From positions 5,145 to 69,144 of the forward strand of contig NW_021835468.1 in the NCBI RefSeq assembly GCF_006345805.1: a stretch of 64,000 nt of DNA, in the 5' to 3' direction. Positions 12,236-61,754 of this stretch are shown piece after piece. The position numbers and the translations under genes are program-made. The DNA comes from Octopus sinensis. Its lineage: Eukaryota. The notes beneath the pieces are model-generated. The model did not search any database. It was not told the DNA's origin and saw only the letters and a list, made by a program, of their open reading frames with translations. Within the stretch, counting starts at the first letter, position 1. Each line of letters begins with the position of its first letter.

Positions 12236-12656
12236 ATCTTTTCTCACTTCCCTATTCGGTTATTCATACATATCCTCTACAGTAAAACACCTGATCTAAA
12301 TCAAAAACTTCCATCAACATTTCAGGTTAATTTATCTTCCAGACATCAGATTAATTACAACAAAGTTCTTTTACTAAATTCTTCGTTATTTTTGAAAATT
12401 AATTGGAACAATAGCAGTGTATTTCAACGGAGATATGGTAACAAAAGGGTTAAAGTAATCTAGATTAAAACATTCCATCAAAATTTCACGTTATGTTCTA
12501 GACCTCATCATCATCATCACCATTTAACATCCGCTTTCCATGCTAGCATGGGATGGACGATTTGACTGAGGTCTGGCAAACCATGGCTGCACCAAACTCC
12601 AATCTGTTTAGATCACTTTAACCCTTTTGTTACCATATTTCTGTTGAAATTACACT

Positions 12657-13075
12657 ACATCATCATTTTTTTTAGCGTCCGCTTTCCATGCTAGCATGGG
12701 TTGGACGGTTTAACTGGGGTCTGTGAAGCCGGAAGGCTTCATCAGGCCCAGTCAGATTTGGCAGTGTTTCTACACCTGGATGCCCTTCCTAATGCTAATC
12801 ACTCCAAGAGTGTAGTGGGAGCTTTTAAGTGCCACTGGCACGAGGGCCAGTCAGGCAGTACTGGCAACGGCCACTCTCAAATGGTGCTTTTTATGTGCCA
12901 CCTCAAATGTTTTTTCACGTGCCACCAGCACAAGTGCCAGTAAGGCGACACAGGTAACGATCATGCTCGTATGGTGTCTTTTACCTGCCACCGACACGGA
13001 GACCAGCTTGTTGCTCTGGTAACAATCATGATCGTATGGTACTCTTAGCGCTCCACTAGCATGGATGCCAGTAGA
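12657..13075 (-). mobile_element. RTE LINE 3'-UTR copy
   Basis: GGAAGGGCATCCAG module and (GAT)n tail. Confidence 0.85.
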
Positions 13076-13351
13076 CATGAGTTTAATAATTGTTTCAAAT
13101 TTTGGCAGAAGGCTGGAGGTTTGGGGAAAGGGGTGATCTTGATTACATCAACCCCAGTATTCAACTGGTACTTATTTGATTGACCCCCCCCCCCCCAAGG
13201 ATAAAAGGCAAAGTTGGCCCCAGTGGAATTTGAACTCGGAACGTAAAGATGGATAAAATACTGATAAGCATTTTGCCAAGCATGCTAACAATTCTGCCAG
13301 CTCACTGCTTTAGACACTTTCTTCATTATTTTCAAAATGAATTAAAACGAA

Positions 13352-13677
13352 GAGCCTCGCCTGGCCCCTGTGCCGGTAGCACGTAAAAGCACCATCCGTT
13401 CGTGTCCGTTGCCAGCCACGCCTGGCCCCCGTGCCGGTGGCACGTAAAAACACCATCCGTTCGTGGCCGTTTGCCAGCTCTGTCTGGCACCTGTGCAGGT
13501 GGCACGTAAAAAGCACCCACTACTCTCACGGAGTGGTTGGCGTTAGGAAGGGCATCCAGCCGTAGAAACACTACCAAATCTGACTGGGCCTGATGAAGCC
13601 TTCTGGCTTCACAGACCCCAGTTAAACCGTCCAACCCATGCTAGCATGGAAAACGGACGCTAAAAAAATGATGATGT
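13352..13677 (+). mobile_element. RTE LINE 3'-UTR copy
   Basis: About 2.5 UTR repeats plus terminal module. Further copies near 6168, 16353, 18921, 26398, 29750, 33640, 39963, 49743, 52140, 59250 and 61920. Confidence 0.88.
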
Positions 13678-14622
13678 AGTGTAATTTCAACAGAAATATG
13701 GTAACAAAAGGGTTAAAGTGATCTAAACTAAAATCTTTCATTAAAATTTCTTGCTAATTCATGTTTTAAACTCCAGTTCAATAATGACAAATTATTTTGC
13801 TAAATTCTTCATTATATTCAAAATTAATTGGAACAAAGTCCATGTATTTCAAGAGAAATATAGTAACCTAAGGGTCAGATGTAAGGAAAAACTTGAAATT
13901 TTAAGGGTACTTGAGTCTGAAAGGGTTAAGATATTGATAACAGAGTTTTTAGTTAGAATAATTAACTATAATAGCCTATTTCACAGAACTGTTGACATGA
14001 ATTCCAAAATTGGCAACGAAGTTTAAAAGACAAATATGGATTTAGAAGGAAACAAAAATGGAAGCATGTGTTGTTGTGTTGTCTTTTCTTTCTTTGGTAA
14101 CCAGACATTTTGGTTGAAGCCTAAATAAAGCCGAAATTCTATGAACTAAATAACCAAATTTTAATTTTAAATTTGATAATTTGCTCAAGTTAGTAAACTT
14201 AAATATCTGCCATGGAAAAACTAACAAACCAGCCGCATTTCTAAATCTGTCATTTTAAACAAATTTACGGCACTTCCAGTGATTTTTATGAGCAAACAAT
14301 GAGGAAATATCAAAAATTTATTTCTTCAAACTTGATGTGTTTGTCATTTTAATTGGGAATCGGTTATTTTTCAATGGAAACTAATAAATCAAGCAAGAAT
14401 AAACATCACCAACAAGAAATTCACAAGTAATTGGAACAAAATGGCCAGGAACCATCATTAAATTTACATTGCAAATTTCATTTGATTTCAGGAGTTATTA
14501 GGAAAATTGTTTGGTTTTTTTCCAGACAGTTTAACTTCATCCTCTTCATCTTCGTCGTTTCTGGTTTGTTTCATTGATTTTTGATCAATAAGGTTTCCTT
14601 GATTATCTTCAGGTGATTATTT

Positions 14623-14676
<54 letters not shown>

Positions 14677-14876
14677 ATTATTGTCATCGTTATAATCATC
14701 GTCATCATCATCATCATAATTAACATCGTTATTTTCACTGTTGTCTTTGTCATCATCATCAATCATCAGTCAACATCAATAGCATCATCATCACCATTGT
14801 TGTTGTCATCTGCATCCTCACCATCCTCCTCCTCCTCAACATCATCATCATCAAGGTCATCATCATCACCACTACC

Positions 14877-15360
14877 TATTTCTTTATTACCCACAGGGGG
14901 TTAAACACAGAGAGGACAAACAAGGACAGACAAACGGATTAAGTCGATTATATCGACCCCAGTGCATAACTGGTACTTAATTTATCATATATAAGGCAGT
15001 GAGCTGGCAGAAACGTTAGCACGCCGGGCGAAATGTTTAGCCGTATTTCGTCTGTCGTTACGTTGAGTTCAAATTTCGCCAAGGACGACTTTGCCTTTCA
15101 TCCTTTCGGGGTTGATAAATTAAGTACCAGTTACGCACTGGGGTCGATGTAATCGACTTAATACCTATGTCTGCCCTTGTTTGTCCCCTCTATGTTTAGC
15201 TCCTTGTGGGTAATAAAGAAATAGGTACTTAATTTATCAACCCCGAAACGATGAAAGGCAAAGTCGACCTCAGCGGAATTTGAACTCAGGACGTAACAGC
15301 AGATGAAATACGGTACGCATTTCGCCCAGCGTTCTGATGATTCTGCCAGCTGGCCGCCTT
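14877..15360 (-). mobile_element. SINE family C with an opposite-strand family C copy nested at 14988-15223
   Basis: Inner TSD GGTACTTAATTTATCA at 14972-14987 and 15224-15239; outer TSD at 14865-14876 and 15363-15374. Confidence 0.9.
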
Positions 15361-24171: not shown

Positions 24172-25625
24172 GCTAAGGCACAGCATATCTCCAAAGGTCT
24201 CGGTCTCCTGTCATTGCCTCTGTGAGGCCCAACTTTTGAAGGCCATGCCTCACCACCTCATCCCATGTCTTCCTGGGTCTACCTCTTCCACAGGTTCCTT
24301 CCACTGTCAGAGAGTAGCACTTCCTCACACAGCTGTCCTCATCCACATGTAACACATGACCATACCAGTGCAGTCGTCTCTCTTGCACACCAAATCTGAT
24401 GCTTCTTAGGTCCAACTTTTCTCTCAGGGTACTTACACTCTGTTGTGTATGCACACTGACATTACACATCCAGTGGATCATACTAGCTTCATTTCTTTCA
24501 AGCCTCGTCAAGTCCTCAGCAATCATGGCCCATGTTTCACTGCTGTGTAGCATGGCAGTTCACACACATGCATCATACAGTTCACTTTTCATCCTGAGCG
24601 AGAGTAGAAGTAGGAGCTCCCTGAACTTTGCCCAGCCTATTCTTATTCTAGTAGCTACACTCTCAGAGCAACCACCCCCACTACAGATTTGATTACCTAG
24701 GTAGCGATAGCTATCAACTACATCTAGTTTTTTTCCTTGGCATGTGATAGAATCTGTTTTCTGTACATCTTCAGTGTTTATTGCCCTTGTGCATCTGCCA
24801 CACACAAAAACTCTTTCTGGTTAACCTTCCTTTGATATTGCTGCACCTTTTATGTGTCCATAGCTTATACCATGTACATCATATGGAGTTTCTACCCACA
24901 CCTTTTCTACAGATCGAACAGGGCCATCTACATGAAGGGGTTTGTGATTTGACAGCCTTCCTACTTACTAAGACTTAGGTTTTTGCTAGATGAGCCCTAA
25001 GGCCCTTCAATTCTAGACCTTGCTTCCACACCCCAAACTTCGTCTCTAGTCCTGGCAGTGACACAGCTATTAGAGCAAGGTCATCAGCACAGAGGAGCTT
25101 CCAGGGGCAGCCTGTCTTGAATTCTTCTGTTATTGCCCGCAAAACTATGATGAATAAGAGGGGGCTGATGACTGATCCTTGGTGAACCCTTACTTCAACC
25201 CGGAATTCTTCACTATACTTGTTGCCAACCCTCACCTTACTGGCAGAATCCTTGTATAGCTCTTAGCAACCACTCATTTATCCCCAGTTTCTGCATTGAC
25301 CACCAGATAAGGGCTTAGGGGACCCTGTCAAAGGCTTTCTCCAAATCAACAAAAGCCAAGTACAGAGGTTTATCTGTGGCTAAGTATTTCTCCTACAGCT
25401 GTCTTACCAGAAATATAGCATCAGTGGTGCTTCTCCCTGGAACAAGCCCAAACTGCATCTCATTTAGACTGACTCTCTCCCTAATTAGTTGGGCTATAAC
25501 CCTCTCTATGACTTCCATTACCTGATCCAACAACTTGATACCTGAGTAATTATTTGTATCTAATGCATCACCTTTACCTTTGTAGCAGTTGACTATGGTG
25601 CTGCTACACCAGTCATTGGGTATAT
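24172..25625 (-). mobile_element. RTE LINE ORF2 fragment (RT, PHD finger, C-terminus), degenerate
   Basis: IPNDWCSSTIV..YKGKGD, MQFGLVPGRSTTDAIF, VHQGSVISPLLF, LLCADD, WYGHV, GRGRPRKTW, with frameshifts. Confidence 0.93.
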
Positions 25626-34333: not shown

Positions 34334-34615
34334 AGAATAAATGCAAATAATGCGAATAAATAAGCAAAATCGACCAAAATCTGGTCCAAGTTTTTTACCT
34401 TTGATAATAATTAAATCTGCAACTGAGAAGAGATAATTAATTTGGCAACGATTTACTAAAGTTATTTTTTCGAAGCCATTTATTACTCGAGAAAAATAAT
34501 TTAAGGTCTCGTTTTTGTAAATTGTTGCACAACCTGCCACCTTCTAATTAGTAGTTTCATCACCCCACCATCACCACCACCACAATAATAATAATAATAA
34601 TAATAATGACAACAA

Positions 34616-35104
34616 CATTGTTTTGTCTTGGTATAAAAGATGGGCTGCAGCAAATATTCTGCTCAGTACCACAGATTTGTTTGTCAGTTGTTTGACCGTA
34701 ACCAGTTGAGCATGTCCCTTAGTGGCTGACGATATGTGCATCTCTGATCATGTGCAGGAGTAGTGGGGGACCATCATAGCCATATGTTGAGAGGAATTCT
34801 TTGGGGTTTGAATAATTCCCTTCTGGAAACATGGGTATTTTTTTATCATCCTCAAACAACCCTTATTCAGGGACCTTTTGAGGAGAATGGGCTACTTAAC
34901 CTGAAGAAAATTCTAACTGGGCCCCACCTGCAAGGTCATGTGCTGTTTATCTTGATATGAGATCACCATGTCACACACATATGGTTGTGATGCATGTGCC
35001 TGGTGTATCCTTACCAGATGGGTAGTCATGATGGGTATACTGGGCTTCGTATATTTGTACCCCAGTGTTACCTTGATGGCATACTCTGTTCTCTCACTCA
35101 ATAA
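34616..35104 (+). mobile_element. Unclassified repeat in (AAT)n, probably a non-LTR 3' end
   Basis: Reverse complement of part of 46063-46612; same end CTCTCACTCAATAA, variable other end. Confidence 0.7.
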
Positions 35105-38470: not shown

Positions 38471-38668
38471 AGCGGAGTAAACGCATATGTGAAACAAGGT
38501 GGAAAAAAGAGTACTCAAATACCAGTGGTAGAGTAATATGCTTTATTTAAAGCAGCAGAAAATTCAACAAAACCTGTTACTCTAGCAAAAAACTGTCTGA
38601 TGAACGGCAACGGGAAACTCAGAGTAACAGGTTTTGTTGAATTTTCTGCTGCTTTAAATAAAGTATAT
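38471..38668. mobile_element. PLE-like mini-element as an inverted pair in (AT)n
   Basis: 48-bp arms at 38536-38583 and 38621-38668 (1 mismatch); a hammerhead overlaps the spacer and right arm. Confidence 0.7.
38593..38630 (+). ncRNA. Minimal type I hammerhead ribozyme motif
   Basis: CTGT-CTGATGA-A CG GCAA CG G-GAAA-CTC A GAG-TA-ACAG; predicted cut after GUA (38626); the 10.1-11.1 pair is mismatched. Confidence 0.72.
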
Positions 38669-38709
38669 GTATATATATATATATATATTATATTAAATTA
38701 TATATATAT

Positions 38710-43374: not shown

Positions 43375-43412
<38 letters not shown>

Positions 43413-43413
43413 A

Positions 43414-43451
43414 CTGTCTGATGAACGGCAACGAGAAACTCGGAGTAACAG
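43414..43451 (+). ncRNA. Minimal type I hammerhead motif (same family as 38593) in a 73-bp unit at 43412-43484
   Basis: CTGT-CTGATGA-A CG GCAA CG A-GAAA-CTC G GAG-TA-ACAG, embedded in (TA)n. Confidence 0.72.
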
Positions 43452-43610
43452 ATTTTGTTGAATTTTCTGCCGCTTTAAATAAAGTATATATATATATATT
43501 TTATGTACACACACATTAAAATACACGCACACATTTAAAGGTATATACAAGCATATACACACGTACATACACGTTTTACATGTATAAATAAATAAGTATA
43601 TATATATTTA

Positions 43611-44375: not shown

Positions 44376-45619
44376 TTTCATATACATACATGTATGTATA
44401 TGCGTGTAGGTATGTATAATATTCAACCCAGTCAAACACGGCACATGAACATTAAATGATAACGAATGCACACACACACACACACACACAGACATTTGTG
44501 TGCGTGTGCAAATATCCTTTGTTGGTGTACATTTGCAAGGAAACCAAAAGGTCAGCACTCAAGTCCCTTGAGATATTTGTTCCCAAGCAAGTTATAAACA
44601 CTCCCTTGTCCGTCCTTGTTACCAGAGTTACAAGCCAGTGATTGGTCCTCAGGAAATCCTGTTCCCCGATTGCAACATGAAAATAAATAAATTACATAAA
44701 AACAAGCTAAAAAATCTAATATCACCTTCCATTCTCCCGCCTCCTTGTGGAATAACGAAGTCGTGTCAATTAAAAGAACCATCTTTAACAATTAATATAT
44801 CTTTATCGTCCATGTTTCTATCGACATAAACGTTCGTTCGTTTATTTTTCATGTTTGAACTTTTAAAAAATCTTCACAATCGTTATCTTGTTGAAACAAA
44901 ACCATTTAACGTTATCGTCTACATCAGATACCAGCACACAAACACCTGATGGCTAAGTCTATCTTGTCAACAAGCAGTTTTCTCCATCGACTGGCGCCTG
45001 CTTCTCTGCTGTTTCCAAAACACGACTTGCTTGAAATTGCTTTATTTCGTTACAGACGTTTGTTCGTTTTAATTTTTTTTTTTTTTTAAATATCTTTCAT
45101 TTGAAGAGAAGGTTGACATGATAGTTTTTGATCAATATTAAAGTCTGGTTCTATCATGATAAAGAAGGTTAATTGATTGGTCACCAGACTATGGCCGGCT
45201 TACTTCAGTAACAACACATAGCAACTTGTACAATCATCACCATCATTGTCGTCATCGTTATTTTAACGTCCACTTTTCCATGCTTGCATGCGTCGGAAAG
45301 AATTCGCCGAGAGAAATTTTTCTGTGGCCGGACGCCCTTCCTGCCACCAACCCTCGCCTGTTTCCCCATGCTAAGGCACCGAGCTGGCAGAATCATTCCC
45401 ACACTGCGAAAAAATGCTTAGCAGCATTTCGTCCGTCTTCACGATCTGAGTTCAAATTCTGTCGAGTTCGACTTTGCTTTTGGAGCTGATAAAATAAGTA
45501 CCAGTTGAATACTGGGGATCAATGTAATCGACTTACCCTCCCCCACTCGTAATTGCTTGCCTTGTGCCAAAATTATTATTATTATTATTACTATTATTAT
45601 TATCATCATCATTATTATT

Positions 45620-46048
45620 CTGTTGTGTCTGGGGAGTCATTCTCTTTAGTGCCTTATAATATAACACACTCACCGGTAAAATTTCCACTTATTTCTTATT
45701 TTTATTTTCCTAAAATTTTCGTTGCATCTTGCAACCTAGTCAATAGTTTTGACTCTTGGAAACAGCAGAGAAGCAGCCGCCAGTCGATGGAGAAGACCGT
45801 TTGTTGACAAGATAGACTTAGGTGTTTGTGTGCTGGTATCTGATGTAGGCGATAACGTTAATAGTCAAGACTATTGAAAAGGTTGCAAGACGCAACGAAA
45901 ATTTTAGGAAAATAAAAATAAGAAATAAGTGGAAATTTTACCGGTGAGTGTGTTAAATTATAAGGCACTAAAAGAAAATGCGTCTCCCCAGACACAACAG
46001 TATATGCTTCAATACACGAACTCATATAAAGAATCTTGCAAACCAAAT
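45620..46048. mobile_element. PLE-like inverted pair enclosing captured local DNA
   Basis: Arms 45620-45754 and 45863-46000; spacer 45756-45861 is the reverse complement of 44906-45018; hammerhead-like TTGAAAA-G-GTTGC AAGAC GCAAC-GAAA at 45874-45900. Confidence 0.7.
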
Positions 46049-46062
46049 CATTATCATTATTA

Positions 46063-46612
46063 TTGAGTGAGAGAGCAGTTCATGCCATCAAAGTGACACT
46101 GGGGTAAAATATACGAAGCCCAATATACCCAACATGACTACCCGTCTGATAAGGGTACACCAGGCACATGCATCACAACCATATGTGCGCGACATGGTGA
46201 TCTCATAAAAAGATAAACAGCACATGACCTTGCAGGTGGGGCCCAGTTAGAATTTTCTTCAGGTTGAGTAGCTCATCCCACTCAAAAGGTCCCTGAATAA
46301 GGGTTGTTTAAGGATGTTGAAAGAACCACCCATGTTTCCAGAGGTGAATTATTCAAACCCCAAAGAATCCCTCTCAACACATGGCTATGATGCTCCCCCA
46401 CTACTTCTGCTCGTGATCAGAGATGCACATATCGTCAGCCACTAAGGGGCATGCTCAACTGGTTAAGGTCAAGCAACTGACAAGCAAATCTATGGTATTG
46501 AGCAGAATATTTGCTGTAGCCCATCTTTTATACCAAGACAAAACAATGTACATGATAACACTTGCAATCAGTTAAGATCAGAAGCCATGAGAGCCACTAC
46601 CTAGTACTGCAT
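46063..46612 (-). mobile_element. Unclassified repeat in (ATT)n (same family as 34616-35104)
   Basis: Flanked by (ATT)n on both sides. Confidence 0.7.
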
Positions 46613-50227: not shown

Positions 50228-50574
50228 TAAAGGTGAGGGCTGGAGATGCTCAATGTAGAAAATACATAGTGGTATTCAAGTAATTTGAACTTAACTCCCA
50301 CTTCTTTATTGAGGATTAGGTCCATGAGACAAGCGTGACTATAAAGAGAAATCCAGAGGAGTTGAAATGAAGATAATGATGGAGATAAACAAGATTAAAT
50401 ATAGATGAAACTTAGTCATGTTTATCTGCATCACTATCTCTATACACACGTTGTATAATATAATATATATATATTATATATATATTATATATATATATAT
50501 AATATATATATATATTATATATGAAAAAACAAGTAAAAAATAGAAAATGCTAAAATAATTTTATAGTGAACATT

Positions 50575-50612
50575 CAGTACTGGTTTCGGTCATTTTGAGA
50601 CCTTTTCAACTG
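50575..50612 (-). ncRNA. Minimal hammerhead, U3:A8 core variant
   Basis: CAG-TTGAAAA-GGTC TCAAAAT GACC-GAAA-CCAG-TA-CTG. Confidence 0.68.
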
Positions 50613-50778
50613 TAACGGTTAAAATAATTAAATTTAGACAAAACTACTATCGAACACAAAGTGCAAACAAGGGAGTCAGAGAAAGGCAAATGCCACTTAT
50701 ATCTGAACACTACTATAGAAATATTCCTTTAAAAAAACTTTTCTTCTAATTTTTCTAAATTTAATTATTTAATCGTTA

Positions 50779-50815
50779 CAGTTGAAAAGGTCTCAAAATG
50801 ACCGAACCGGTACTG
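50779..50815 (+). ncRNA. Minimal hammerhead, U3:A8 core variant, one A of GAAA lost
   Basis: CAG-TTGAAAA-GGTC TCAAAAT GACC-GAA-CCGG-TA-CTG. Confidence 0.6.
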
Positions 50816-50930
50816 AAATGTTCACTATAAAATTATTTTAGCATTTTCTATTTTTTACTTGTTTTTTCATATATATCAACTCGTGTGTTCCTTTTCACCC
50901 TTATACATATATATATATATATATATATAA

Positions 50931-53111: not shown

Positions 53112-54311
53112 CATCATCATCATCATCACCGTCGTTTAACATCCGTTTTCCATGCTAGTATGGGTTGGACAGTTCATCCGGGGTCTGGGAAGCCAGGAGG
53201 CTGCACCAGGCTCCAGTCTGATCTGGCAGTGTTTCTACAGCTGGATACCCTTCCTAACGCCAACCACTCAGTGAGTGTAGTGGGTGCTTTTTATGTGCCA
53301 CCGGCACTGGTGCCAGGGGAGGCTGGCAGCAGCCATGATCGGTTGGTGGATTTTACGTGCCACCGGCACAGAAGCCAGTCAAGGCTGTGCTGGCATCGGT
53401 CACGTTTGGATGGTGCTTTTTACATGCCGCCAGCACAGGTATCGTAACTACAATTTCCATTTGATATTTATTTTGATGTTGATGTACTTGACTCAATAGG
53501 TCTCCTCAAGCACAGCAGGTCACCCTATGATCCAAGGTAAGCTCAGCAGGTCGTTCTGCAATCCAAGGTAGTTTGGATGGGCTGGGGCTATTCGAAACTG
53601 GTGCAGGAAGCAGCCCGGGTCTTTGCAGTCACAGCATATCTCCAGAGATCTTGGTCTTTCGTCATTGCATCTGTGAGGCCCAACGTTTGAAGGTTATGCT
53701 TGACTACCACATCCCATGTCTTCCTGGGTCTACCTCTCCCCCTGATACCTTCAACTGTTTGGGAGTGGCACTTCTTCACACATCTCTCCTCATCCATCCA
53801 CAGTACATGACCATACCATCGCAAGCGTCTCTCTTGCACACCACATCTGATGCTTCTTATGTCCAGCATTTCTCTCAGGGTGCTTACACTGTCGTGTGTG
53901 CACACTGACATTACACATCCAGTGGATCATGTTAGCTTCATTTCTTTCAAGTCTACGCATGTCCTCTGCAGTCACAGCCCATATTTCACTACCGTGAAGC
54001 ATGGCAGTTCGCACACATGCATCATACAATCTACCTTTCACTTTGAGCGAGAGACCCTTTGTCGCCAGTAGGGGTAGGAACTTTCTGAACTTTGCCCAGG
54101 CTATTCGTATTCTAGTAGTGACACTCTCTGAGCATCCACCTCCACTACTAACTTGGTCACCTAGGTAGCGGAAACTATCAACTACTTCTAGTTTCTCCCC
54201 CTGGAGTGTGATGGAATCTGTTTTCTGAGTATCTGTGGTGTCTATTGCCCCTGTGCATCTGCCGCACATGAAAGCTATCTTATCAGTTAGTTTTCCTTTG
54301 ATGTTTCTGCG
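53112..54311 (-). mobile_element. 5'-truncated RTE LINE (ORF2 C-terminus and 3' UTR)
   Basis: LEVVDSFRYLG, RIAWAKFR, WYGHV, GRGRPRKTW; (GAT)n tail. Confidence 0.93.
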
Positions 54312-54639
54312 TGGCCACAAAGTCATGCACCATGGGAGATATCAAGTATGCTTTATTAGCAATGAAGTAGGCAATCCATTACAAATGTTCAAAGTGTTGG
54401 CCATGTGGCTCTAAACAAGTGTTTATAGGGAATTTGAAATTGCGATGAAACCTCTAAAATAGCTCTTCATTGCTGTTGACTTGTTCACACGCTTCAACAA
54501 TTCTTTGAAGAAGATGTCCTTGGTCACCAATCTTTTCAGAATACACAAGGGATTTAATGTAGCCCCAGAAGAAAATTCCATAGGAGCTAAATATGTAATG
54601 GCCATTATTTATACCTTGTCTTATAAATATATATAAATA

Positions 54640-54935
54640 CTAGCATTATCGCCCGGCGTTGCTCGGATTTGTAAGGGAAATAACTATATAAGCATTTTTA
54701 GAGGGTTACTTCCCTCATAAAATAGCAAAAAAATGCATTAAAAATGGGAAAAAATGATGGTAAATTTTTTTTTAAATCGTAGACTCATCGTAGACGCGCG
54801 TTAATACCCAGAAGGGGTCGATATGAATCACGACTATAAGATACCCGGTTTTGGTTAAACTGCACCGCAAAATGTGGGAGTAGTTAGGAATCTAAATCGT
54901 AGGAGACAGACACACAACTTCACTTTTATATACAT
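54640..54935 (-). mobile_element. Non-autonomous Helitron (same family as 21372-21668)
   Basis: Near-identical sequence; CTAG end with hairpin. Confidence 0.85.
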
Positions 54936-55065
54936 ATACACACAGTAACCCCTCGCCATATCACGGTTTATTATTTAAGCTTACATTGATTCCTCCATGG
55001 TGTTGTTTTGAATTTATGATAAAATAAACATATACAAATTATAAAAATAATAAAAAAAACATATA

Positions 55066-57207
55066 CATAGACTAGTAGTTAGTGACTTTAGGATCAGGAC
55101 TAAGAGGACAACCAGAAGACGACCAGCATGGAGAAGAAGGATCTGGAAGCTTAAAGATCCTGCGAATGGACAGAGATTTAGGGACATGCTACTTGAAGCC
55201 TTTGACGAAGTAGAAGGGGATAGAGTATCACATGGGGTAGAAGGCAACTGGACGTTTCTAAGGGACAACCCGCTGAGAGCCACTGACCAGATCTGTGGCT
55301 GGTGCAAAGTCCCCTCTCGTCCCAAGGTAATGTGGTGGTGGAACAATGTTGTAGACAGGGCTATTAGAGAAAAGAGACAGGCTTGGAAGGTCTGGAAAAA
55401 TGGGGGTAGCAGGGGATTGTATCAGACTGCCAAGAGGGAAGCTAAGAGACAGGTCTATCTAGCCAGAGGGGAAGCAGATAAGAAAAAATTTGCTAATGTT
55501 CTGTGCCGTGAGGACCAAAGACTGGAGGTGTTTCGAGTTGCAAGACAGTGTGTGAGAGAGAATCGTGATGTGGTAGGAGAGAAGTGTGTTCGCATGGAAG
55601 ATGGTTCACTTGCGCTAAATGAGGATGCAAAGAGAGAGGTTTGGAGACACCACTATGAAAGGTTGCTGAAAATGAATGGGATAAAGAAAGTCTGCCGAAT
55701 GTTGACCCAACAGAGGGACCAGCTATTTGAGTTGATAGTTCCTTGGTAGCTAAGGCAATTAGAAGTATGAAGACAGAGAAAGCCCCAGGCCCATCAGAAA
55801 TCACTGCAGAGATGCTCAAAATATCTGGTAGTGTCGGCTATAGCCTAGTCACCCGTATAGTTAATCAGGTGATACACGAAGGAGTCATACCCAATGACTG
55901 GTGTAGCAGCATAATAGTCAACTGCTACAAAGGTAAAGGTGACGCCCTAGATACAAATAATTATAGAGGTATCAAGCTGTTGGATCAGGTAATGAAGGTT
56001 ACGGAGAGGGTCATAGCCTAACTAATTAGAGAGAGAGTTAGTTTAGATGAGATGCAGTTTGGGTTCATGCCAGGGAAAAGTACCACTGATGCTATATTCC
56101 TGGTAAGGCAGCTGCAGGAGAAATACCTAGCCAAAGATAAGCCCCTGTACCTGGCTTTTGTTGACATGGAGAAAGCCTTCGACAGAGTCCACCGATCCCT
56201 TATCTGGTGGTCAATGAGGAAACTAGGGATAGATGAATTGGGAGCTCCTCTATGCTGATGACCTTGCTCTAATTGCTGAGTCACTATCAGAACTGGAGGA
56301 GAAGTTTCAGGTGTGGAAGCAAGGATTAGAATCGAAGGGCCTTAGAGTCAATCTAGCTAAAACCAAAGTCCTAAGAAGTAGGAAGGTAGACCAATCACAA
56401 ACGCCTTCAGGTAGATGGCCCTGCTCGATCTGTAGAAAAGGTGTAGGTAGAAACTCTATAAGATGCACCAAGTGTAAGCTATGGACACATAAGAGGTGCA
56501 GCAATGTCAAAGGAAGGCTAACTAGGAAGATAGTTTTTGTATGTGGCAGTTGCTCAGAAACAATAAACACTGAAAATGCTCTGAGACTAACTTCTGTCAC
56601 TTTCCAGGGAGAAAAACTAGAAATAGTTGATAGCTTCCATTACCTAGGTGTCCAAGTCAGTAGCGGGGGTGGGTGTGCTGAAAGTGTAACTGCTAGAGTA
56701 AGAATAGCTTGGACAAAGTTCAGAGAGCTCTTACCTCTGCTAGTGACAAAAGGCCTCTCGCTCAGAGTAAAAGGCAGACTGTATGACGTGTGTGTACGAA
56801 CAGCCATGCTACATGGCAGTGAAACATGGGCCGTGACCGCTGAGGATATGCATAAGCTCGCAAGAAATGAAGCCAGTATGCTCCAATGGATGTGTAATTT
56901 CAGTGTTCATACTCGACAGAGTGTAAGTACCTTGAGAGAAAAGCTGGACCTAAGAAGCATCAGATGTTGTGTGCAAGAGAGACGTTTGCGCTGGTATGGT
57001 CATGTGGCGAGAATGGATGAAGATAGTTGTGTGAAAAAGTGCCACACCCTAGCGGTTGAGGGAACCTGTGGAAGAGGCAGACCCAGGAAAACCTGGGACG
57101 TGGTGGTGAAGCACGACCTTCGAACTTTAGGTCTCACTGAGGAAATGACTAGAGACCAAGACCTCTGGAAGTATGCTGTGCGTGAGAAGACCCGGCAGGA
57201 CAAGTGA
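55066..57207 (+). pseudogene. LINE ORF2 (reverse transcriptase with PHD finger), disrupted
   Basis: Frameshift near 55670, stop at 56019-56021, deletion of the QG..SP region at about 56238; C4HC3 finger at 56422-56553. Confidence 0.92.
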
Positions 57208-61175: not shown

Positions 61176-61669
61176 GTATGTGATATATATATATGTGTAT
61201 ATATATATACATATATGTGTGTGTGTGCGTGTGGTGTGTATATATATATATATATATATCTATATATATATATATACACATATATGTATATATGTATATA
61301 AAATCAAAGGTGTAGAACAGAAAAACACAACAAACGGAAAAAAAAGGACAATAGCATCATATAGACAAAGGCAAACAGGAAGTGCATGTATTTAAATGTA
61401 TATAATATATATATATACATATATATGTCTATATAGGCACAGCAGTGGCTGTATGTAAGTAGTTTGCTTATCAAACACCTGGTTCCGGGTTCACTCCCAC
61501 TGCGTGGAACCTTCGGCAAGTGTCTTCTACCGAAGCTGTCCCCTCATGCACATGCATACATACATACAAACATACATACATACGTACATGCATGCATAGG
61601 TGCACACACACTGACCCACACACATGCACACAAACAAACAAAAGGGAACACAGTGTAAATAAGGGACAA

Positions 61670-61754
61670 AGTCAAGACTATTGAAAAGGTTGCAAGACGC
61701 GACAAAAATTTTCGGAAAATGTAAATAAGAAATAAGTGGAAATTTTACCGGTGA
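61670..61754 (+). mobile_element. Third copy of the 45863 PLE-like unit
   Basis: Begins at the same AGTCAAGACTATTGAAAAGG boundary; GAAA is mutated. Confidence 0.75.

Follow-up and report, generated by a model that had tools for sequence, protein, structure and literature searches.

A Copied Segment of Nearby Host DNA in the Seam of a Probable Head-to-Head Penelope-like Insertion

The locus at 45620 to 46048 carries a real copying scar, in which an inverted copy of nearby host DNA sits exactly between the two mirror-image arms of a probable head-to-head insertion of a Penelope-like element (PLE). The event is of a known kind, with an unusually long reach. The reading that we favor, at a probability of about 0.55, is that this spacer was made during PLE-like integration, when a cDNA end would have folded back, copied its own flank, and joined a second cDNA. 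All positions refer to the window, i.e., the whole 64,000-nucleotide stretch of Octopus sinensis DNA that was analysed, animal DNA that is rich in repeats, many of them microsatellites, and in which we found no tRNA and no Rfam match at gathering score.

Results

The spacer is an inverted copy of single-copy-like host DNA

The spacer (45756 to 45861, minus orientation) is the reverse complement of a 113-nt source segment at 44906 to 45018, from which it differs by 5 substitutions and one 7-nt gap in a 113-column alignment. The alignment scored 152 bits (E value of 6e-40, search of the 64-kb window), compared with at most 31.9 bits for the best of 500 shuffled spacers, and besides the source nothing in the window matched the spacer at more than 24 bits. 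These values bear out the preliminary description, which had reported this inverted copy with about 5 substitutions and a 7-bp indel. That description would have lost its ground if the source were itself a high-copy internal part of the element, and we therefore checked this against public contigs aligned to the locus, from which all family-level evidence in this work derives. In each of four public runs, one long contig spanned the source at the depth of its flanks (source/flanks of 48/48, 33/33, 8/8, and 44/44), whereas the arms reached summed contig depths of 1e5 to 3e6 in the same runs, thousands of times above the source (a summed contig depth is not a copy number). Accordingly, the source is host DNA outside the repeat and not a part of the element.

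The source is still in place, and the host segment duplicated amounts to 106 nt. With the left arm subtracted, the source lay 601 to 714 nt to the left of the insertion point before insertion; the distance of ~740 bp given earlier thus shrinks to about 600 nt. At the left junction, one base is common to arm and source, and the sequence has one extra or ambiguous base at each spacer-arm junction. The other spacer end is in register with the family's upstream letters for 6 to 7 nt (chance of 0.001 to 0.009 per junction), and the 5 letters between this match and the arm are the source's, not the element's. The source ends show, in sequence, neither a poly(A) nor a splice junction that would mark RNA ends. 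We also considered the source as a coding exon and rejected this, as no reading frame stands out.

The divergences of the spacer from its source (5/106) and of arm from arm (7/135) are of the same order, which suggests that patch and arms have about the same age and fits a single event. In a contig of a related organism (597 nt, run X9), 15 differences from the window are listed (18 counted); the listed ones all lie outside the 138 nt around the source (44895 to 45032), where no difference is listed. The spacer-source differences hence probably arose in the copy. The same comparison (0 listed differences in the 113 nt of the source, p about 0.02 to 0.04) gives a weak hint that the source is slightly constrained, and this hint is what stands of the earlier suggestion that the duplicated sequence might be regulatory.

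Contigs were also inspected over the spacer itself. The contig on the spacer shows the source's letters together with the 7 extra bases (runs X9, X13, and X4), and no contig bridging a spacer-arm junction was among those listed for runs X1, X2, X5, X9, X13, and X4, which are DNA or unlabelled runs whose contigs drop rare variants, so that this result speaks neither for absence nor for polymorphism of the filled allele. In run X4, a second contig covers ~37 nt of the spacer (45785 to 45821); of three diagnostic positions in it, two agree with the source and one with the spacer. It may be an allele or a further partial copy. The one presumed RNA run examined (X17) had no contig on the source-like stretch, and none of the runs listed as containing matching contigs is recorded as RNA; neither result has a bearing on expression. 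Among the public contigs listed, no empty-site joint was seen, and a joint at 45517 to 46047 was discarded as such a site because it ends too early in the SINE to be the 45620 to 46048 locus.

The arms stop short of the family's 5′ extent

Of 135 aligned letters, the two arms (45620 to 45754 versus 45863 to 46000) share 128, and the alignment has 3 gap letters, in line with the inverted arms of about 135 bp first described. From the alignment, the left arm (45620 to 45755, minus) carries the element end in inverted orientation and has no tail, and its outer end corresponds to right-arm position about 46004. The right arm (45863 to 46004, plus), delimited by alignment and contig depth, is the element end in sense orientation and would be pLTR-like. 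The window holds only short arms of this family, including a third, single copy at 61650 to 61754 (plus), which is 94% alike to the right arm over 61670 to 61754.

All three copies had been said to stop at a common AGTC boundary, and this is true of the two arms, whose ends there differ by no more than about 2 nt. The third copy passes the boundary by at least 20 nt: its letters at 61650 to 61669 agree with the family's 5′ extension at 17/20 positions, the only such match in the window, compared with 8/20 and 5/20 for the 20 letters before each of the two arms. The family sequence likewise continues 5′ past 45863 in shared loose contig ends (4/4 runs, 14 to 122 contigs per row, agreement of 0.45 to 0.72). 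The AGTC boundary is thus shared by the two arms alone; the family runs further 5′ both in contigs and in the third copy, so that a fixed family end at this position is not supported.

Two smaller observations concern the inner ends of the arms. At 45737 to 45754, two left-arm changes turn an imperfect short inverted repeat into a longer hairpin, reminiscent of quasi-palindrome correction. Furthermore, single contigs in runs X9, X13, and X4 join both arms at 45755-45863/45865 with unresolved letters between them, and come from other loci, with longer arms or other spacers.

A minimal hammerhead motif in the right arm

The right arm contains a match to a minimal type I hammerhead descriptor (45871 to 45907, plus strand; boxes at 45874 to 45904). 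Its UUGAAAA core (U3-A8) is followed by one extra base and by a stem II of 5 bp with a closing G-C pair (G10.1-C11.1); the remaining parts are GAAA, the palindrome AATT, and a stem I of 3 bp. The descriptor was loosened after the motif had been seen, a stricter first version having missed it; in its loosened form it gave 2 matches in the window versus 0.05 per shuffle, both in arms of head-to-head pairs. The right-arm hammerhead is absent from the Rfam results, which held only chance-level rows near the locus, and the first 89 nt showed no pronounced tendency to fold (z of −0.3 to −2.1). The motif is broken both in the left arm, at its core, and in the third copy, at the GAAA box.

According to PMC4209133, minimal hammerheads of PLEs have core boxes C3-G8 or U3-A8, a base between 9 and 10.1, G10.1-C11.1, and a palindromic 15.2-16.2, and occur as opposite-strand pairs 100 to 700 bp apart. 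Judged by its letters, the right-arm motif fits these core features, sharing the U3-A8 variant, the base at 9/10.1, the G10.1-C11.1 pair, and a palindromic helix III. It differs from them in its stem I of only 3 bp, in a cut triplet that ends in U, and in the broken state of the two other copies, and its cleavage is a prediction. A scrambled (type SGC) hammerhead, as described in PMC10085705, is unneeded, since the ordinary type I minimal layout fits.

Because the hammerhead lies on the plus strand of the right arm, the 5′ ends of both arms would point inward, toward the spacer. We had also considered a tail-to-tail arrangement, with inner ends that are RNA 3′ ends, and dropped it on the contig ends and the comparison of hammerhead and arms. 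The hammerhead-like motif of the preliminary description is thus a real sequence pattern, but not one located at the boundary: the predicted cut falls after 45904, ~40 nt inside the right arm and away from 45863, so that we rejected hammerhead cleavage as the cause of the common inner boundary. Among the head-to-head joints listed for other loci, four have an inner end no more than 2 nt away from the predicted cut (45903 to 45906 in family coordinates), a stretch that is also a short palindrome, so that cleavage or self-annealing could explain joints there.

One-sided tail, target site, and open reading frame

A tail of 44 nt (46005 to 46048, plus) is present on the right arm only and is family sequence rather than host DNA, as high family depth continues to about 46050. 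Behind 46048/46049, loose contig ends carry ~10 more family letters followed by AT-rich letters in 4/4 runs, which gives a tail of 44 nt at the locus and of about 54 nt in the family. The other 3′ end site, at about 46005, rests on the left arm and on one loose-end row (7 contigs, among 24 listed of 825 rows) with (AT)n behind 46005. The insertion thus has a tail on one end only, and two 3′ end sites.

Both outer arm ends touch an ATC/ATT tract with a repeat that resembles a target duplication (45602 to 45619 and 46047 to 46064, both plus), alike at 17/18 letters and with an exact 12-mer (45608 to 45619 = 46053 to 46064); the tract is of low complexity, and the duplication may be microsatellite chance. 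The insertion was received by the ATT/ATC tail of an abundant short repeat (45380 to 45601, plus) with many window copies and high summed depth, which we take to be SINE-like. On the right, a separate abundant repeat (46060 to 46549, with a second, inverted copy at 34615 to 35104) lies outside the pair, and in contigs starting at 46050, AT-rich letters precede, not the arm.

An ATG followed by 24 open codons runs to the end of the arm (45978 to 46048, plus) and might be an ORF start, although so short a run is often due to chance. The 30-residue translation had one repeat-protein match (E value of 7e-4) and no Atlas match. The arm contains no open stretch of 40 residues, and no RT, GIY-YIG, or RT-endonuclease ORF linked to the arms was found.

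The insertion resembles PLE insertions

By analogy with described elements, the insertion is likely a small one, made of a PLE end joined head-to-head; we infer this membership from anatomy, because the arms have no linked RT-endonuclease ORF. PMC8557442 and PMC3846280 describe a PLE insertion unit with an inverted 5′-truncated copy, and an inverted 5′-truncated copy joined head-to-head, as in endonuclease-bearing PLEs, is what we observed here. Together with PMC11167929, these sources also describe a tail on one end, an AT-rich or microsatellite target, a short duplication, and a possible ORF start inside the repeat; this locus has the one-sided tail and the ATC/ATT tract, with a possible duplication and a possible ORF start. 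The 24 codons from the 45978 ATG bear a weak likeness to a rotifer Penelope (PMC3846280) whose repeat and tail together carry 22 codons, and the tail is longer than the 30 to 40 nt described. What sets the locus apart is the seam: PLE inverted junctions are described in these sources as direct, overlapping, or palindromic, whereas here 106 nt of host DNA fill it. For a rotifer, PMC3846280 also describes solo pLTRs, with target duplications, that have captured unrelated sequences between them. Local-DNA spacers in PLE inverted junctions did not turn up in the open-access literature and may still be reported elsewhere.

Contigs from other loci show that members of this family are also joined in opposite orientations elsewhere, with opposite-strand joints in 8 of 15 listed (of 104) and arm-to-arm joints in 7 of 15 listed (of 623). 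Most of the listed joints are offset by tens of bases, unlike the symmetric arms at 45755/45863. Searches of two metagenome collections and one prokaryote-genome collection gave 0 matches to arm-family loci.

Discussion

Origin of the spacer

If the spacer was made during integration, the course of events might have been as follows. The element endonuclease would have nicked both strands of the ATC/ATT tract, as PMC11167929 reports that purified PLE protein cuts and extends both target strands, with both-strand cleavage at ATT and two internal RT starts. Both 3′ ends would then have primed reverse transcription of element RNA to yield copies head-to-head, with one start at the pLTR end (about 46004) and the other in the tail (about 46048). 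The copies run for about 140 and 185 nt and end before the full 5′ extent of the family is reached. The left cDNA, with its 3′ end on the top strand, could next have annealed at 45018, through one shared base, to its own top strand, exposed there by resection of the other strand, and could have been extended by 113 nt by the element RT or by a host repair polymerase such as Pol theta. Finally, the new end would have been released and joined to the right cDNA, perhaps aided by the 6- to 7-nt match. A top-strand cDNA end that copies its left flank in inverted orientation must template on its own strand, i.e., by a fold-back on single-stranded DNA, and the combination of a left-flank source and an inverted copy would by analogy correspond to the in-cis snap-back geometry in PMC5068794 and PMC11371274.

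The spacer-source match, the single-copy source, the arm orientation given by the hammerhead, the one-sided tail, the AT-rich letters behind the family ends, the head-to-head joints at other loci, the similar divergences of spacer and arms, and the 6- to 7-nt match speak for this fold-back within a PLE insertion. Against a PLE insertion weigh the lack of a linked RT or GIY-YIG ORF, the overlong tail, the thin basis of the 3′ end site at about 46005, and a duplication that may be chance. Against the fold-back stand that we have one locus only, that the arms end no more than 2 nt apart, for which cutting at a palindrome centre is a better fit, and that 113 nt copied from 600 nt away would be unusual for L1 templated insertions and for Pol theta inserts. 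Moreover, the 5 letters beside the 6- to 7-nt match follow the source, so that simple annealing there fails to give the observed junction.

The main rival to capture during integration takes up the symmetry of the arms: a near-perfect head-to-head palindrome would have landed and later been cut at its hairpin or cruciform centre, after which host repair, by end-joining or break-induced synthesis, would have patched the gap from nearby DNA, with the spacer then stabilising the pair. Long palindromes are unstable. The two arms break off at nearly the same point, to within about 2 nt, even though the family continues 5′, most listed joints elsewhere being offset, and one-base priming with reverse-complement inserts is described for Pol theta (PMC5068794). 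On the other hand, the divergence of the spacer is not below that of the arms, which means that any delay was short; the outer ends, the tail, and the duplication are intact, with no flank lost; and joints at this symmetric boundary are also listed in three runs, so that the symmetry may recur for another reason. We regard such a repair as possible, if clearly the less probable account. As to whether the spacer formed during integration, the similar divergences of spacer and arms are also compatible with early repair. The template switching onto adjacent DNA that was first proposed is thus also the reading that we prefer, its source not being of high copy, while integration and later repair are inseparable at one locus.

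The extra or ambiguous base at each junction, as seen in template jumps, could instead point to an RNA template, if the RT had jumped from element RNA to a short local transcript (e.g., an enhancer or nascent RNA) over 44906 to 45018. Insertions that combine two RNAs have been reported for both L1 and R2 (PMC11371274 for the latter), and the slight apparent constraint on the source is what a functional, possibly transcribed element might show. Such a template would have no need to originate within 1 kb, however, and the source ends carry no marks of RNA ends, which makes this account unlikely. Inverted arms around host DNA with a short direct repeat on both sides would also be the appearance of a TIR DNA transposon that had captured host DNA (Pack-MULE or MITE type), an explanation that is largely refuted by outer ends that differ by 44 nt rather than being identical. 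A single arm exists (61650 to 61754), inner joints vary among loci, the arm carries a PLE-type hammerhead, and the spacer's one other match in the window is its source, so we hold a transposon of this type to be very improbable. Fold-back structures are a known long-read artefact, and an assembly error through a fold-back or chimeric read therefore deserves mention, the more so as PLE inverted units are described to cause assembly problems (PMC8557442). Near-identity would then be expected, whereas 5 substitutions and a 7-nt gap separate the spacer from its source, 7 substitutions and 3 gap letters set the arms apart, and an artefact would not create a one-sided tail of family sequence; we give it just as little credence as the transposon.

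Comparison with known templated insertions

As in templated insertions, the sequence inserted here can be traced to single-copy host DNA close by, which is still in place. For L1, 22 such cases are reported (bioRxiv 10.1101/2024.08.27.596794, PMC11702581), mostly <250 bp and mostly with templates within 15 bp of the site. The present case is like these in that a genomic segment of <250 bp was copied in, in L1 during integration and ascribed there to a cDNA end pairing with nearby DNA, and unlike them in that its source lies about 600 nt off. L1 twin priming, moreover, yields copies of different parts of one RNA, while at this locus a single end was copied twice, and the enzyme family differs. 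In the snap-back 5′ junctions of R2 (PMC11371274), target DNA close by serves as template for extra synthesis from the cDNA 3′ end ahead of closure, similar to the step proposed here; those junctions are single-arm, in rDNA of cultured cells, in contrast to the two arms and the 600-nt reach at this locus. Pol theta inserts (PMC5068794) provide parallels for one-base priming, template switching, and reverse-complement inserts from in-cis fold-back, but they are usually <25 bp, come from within about 10 to 20 bp of the break, and involve no retroelement.

How general is the capture

The window offers a rough guide to how often such a capture happens. From 24 close inverted matches listed, 9 self-overlapping pairs and 2 simple repeats were dropped, which left 7 pairs of different families, and 1 of the 7 has a local single-copy middle. 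In the other six, the middle is the element's own sequence (two pairs), a 99-nt stretch without a source in the window (one pair), or a stretch of 20 to 22 nt too short to map (three pairs). With only one locally derived middle in seven, the earlier inference that the element would duplicate host sequence is not supported as a routine effect. The effect on the host is probably small, given 106 nt duplicated and a weak hint of constraint in the source.

We tentatively raise the possibility, which we think doubtful at present, that head-to-head seams of PLEs recurrently capture 50 to 110 nt of inverted flank from hundreds of bases away; the basis would be an intermediate with two long-lived, cDNA-tipped ends combined with long resection. 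If true, the reach would extend far beyond that of reported L1 templated insertions, and genomes with tens of thousands of pairs would receive a steady supply of short local inverted duplications, including of constrained non-coding DNA. It would also decide between twin priming and self-priming for PLE palindromes. The origin of PLE inverted repeats is unsettled, with self-priming on antisense RNA proposed in PMC3846280 and cutting and extension of both strands in PMC11167929. Host DNA in a seam is hard to obtain from a simple hairpin and easy to obtain from two separate cDNA ends. Because seam host DNA fits two cDNA ends, a genome-wide count of seams by distance, side, and orientation would test the models, which one locus does not.

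Other inverted structures in the window

A second head-to-head pair, of another family, lies in a (TA)n tract at 50516 to 50875, with nearly identical arms of about 130 nt. It carries a minimal hammerhead with the same UUGAAAA core (minus strand, at 50609), both arms match Rfam HH9 weakly (E values of 0.81 and 7.6), and its middle is the 99-nt stretch mentioned above. At 38536 to 38678 and 43412 to 43499, a short pair joined head-to-head lies next to (TA)n; the 5′ extension of the element itself forms its middle, in which a hammerhead-like CUGAUGA...GAAAC...GUA motif occurs. A SINE-like repeat at 14873 to 15227 is joined head-to-head to a partial inverted self-copy (arms of 115 nt) and followed by a further inverted piece, and at 12606 to 13728, inverted 299-nt arms (89%) composed of nested repeats stand 533 nt apart, with further inverted pieces at 12416 to 12583. 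Last, 53588 to 57207 and 24173 to 25623 hold broken LINE-like reverse-transcriptase fragments, presumably RTE-like, which occur in both orientations as judged from ORFs and inverted matches.
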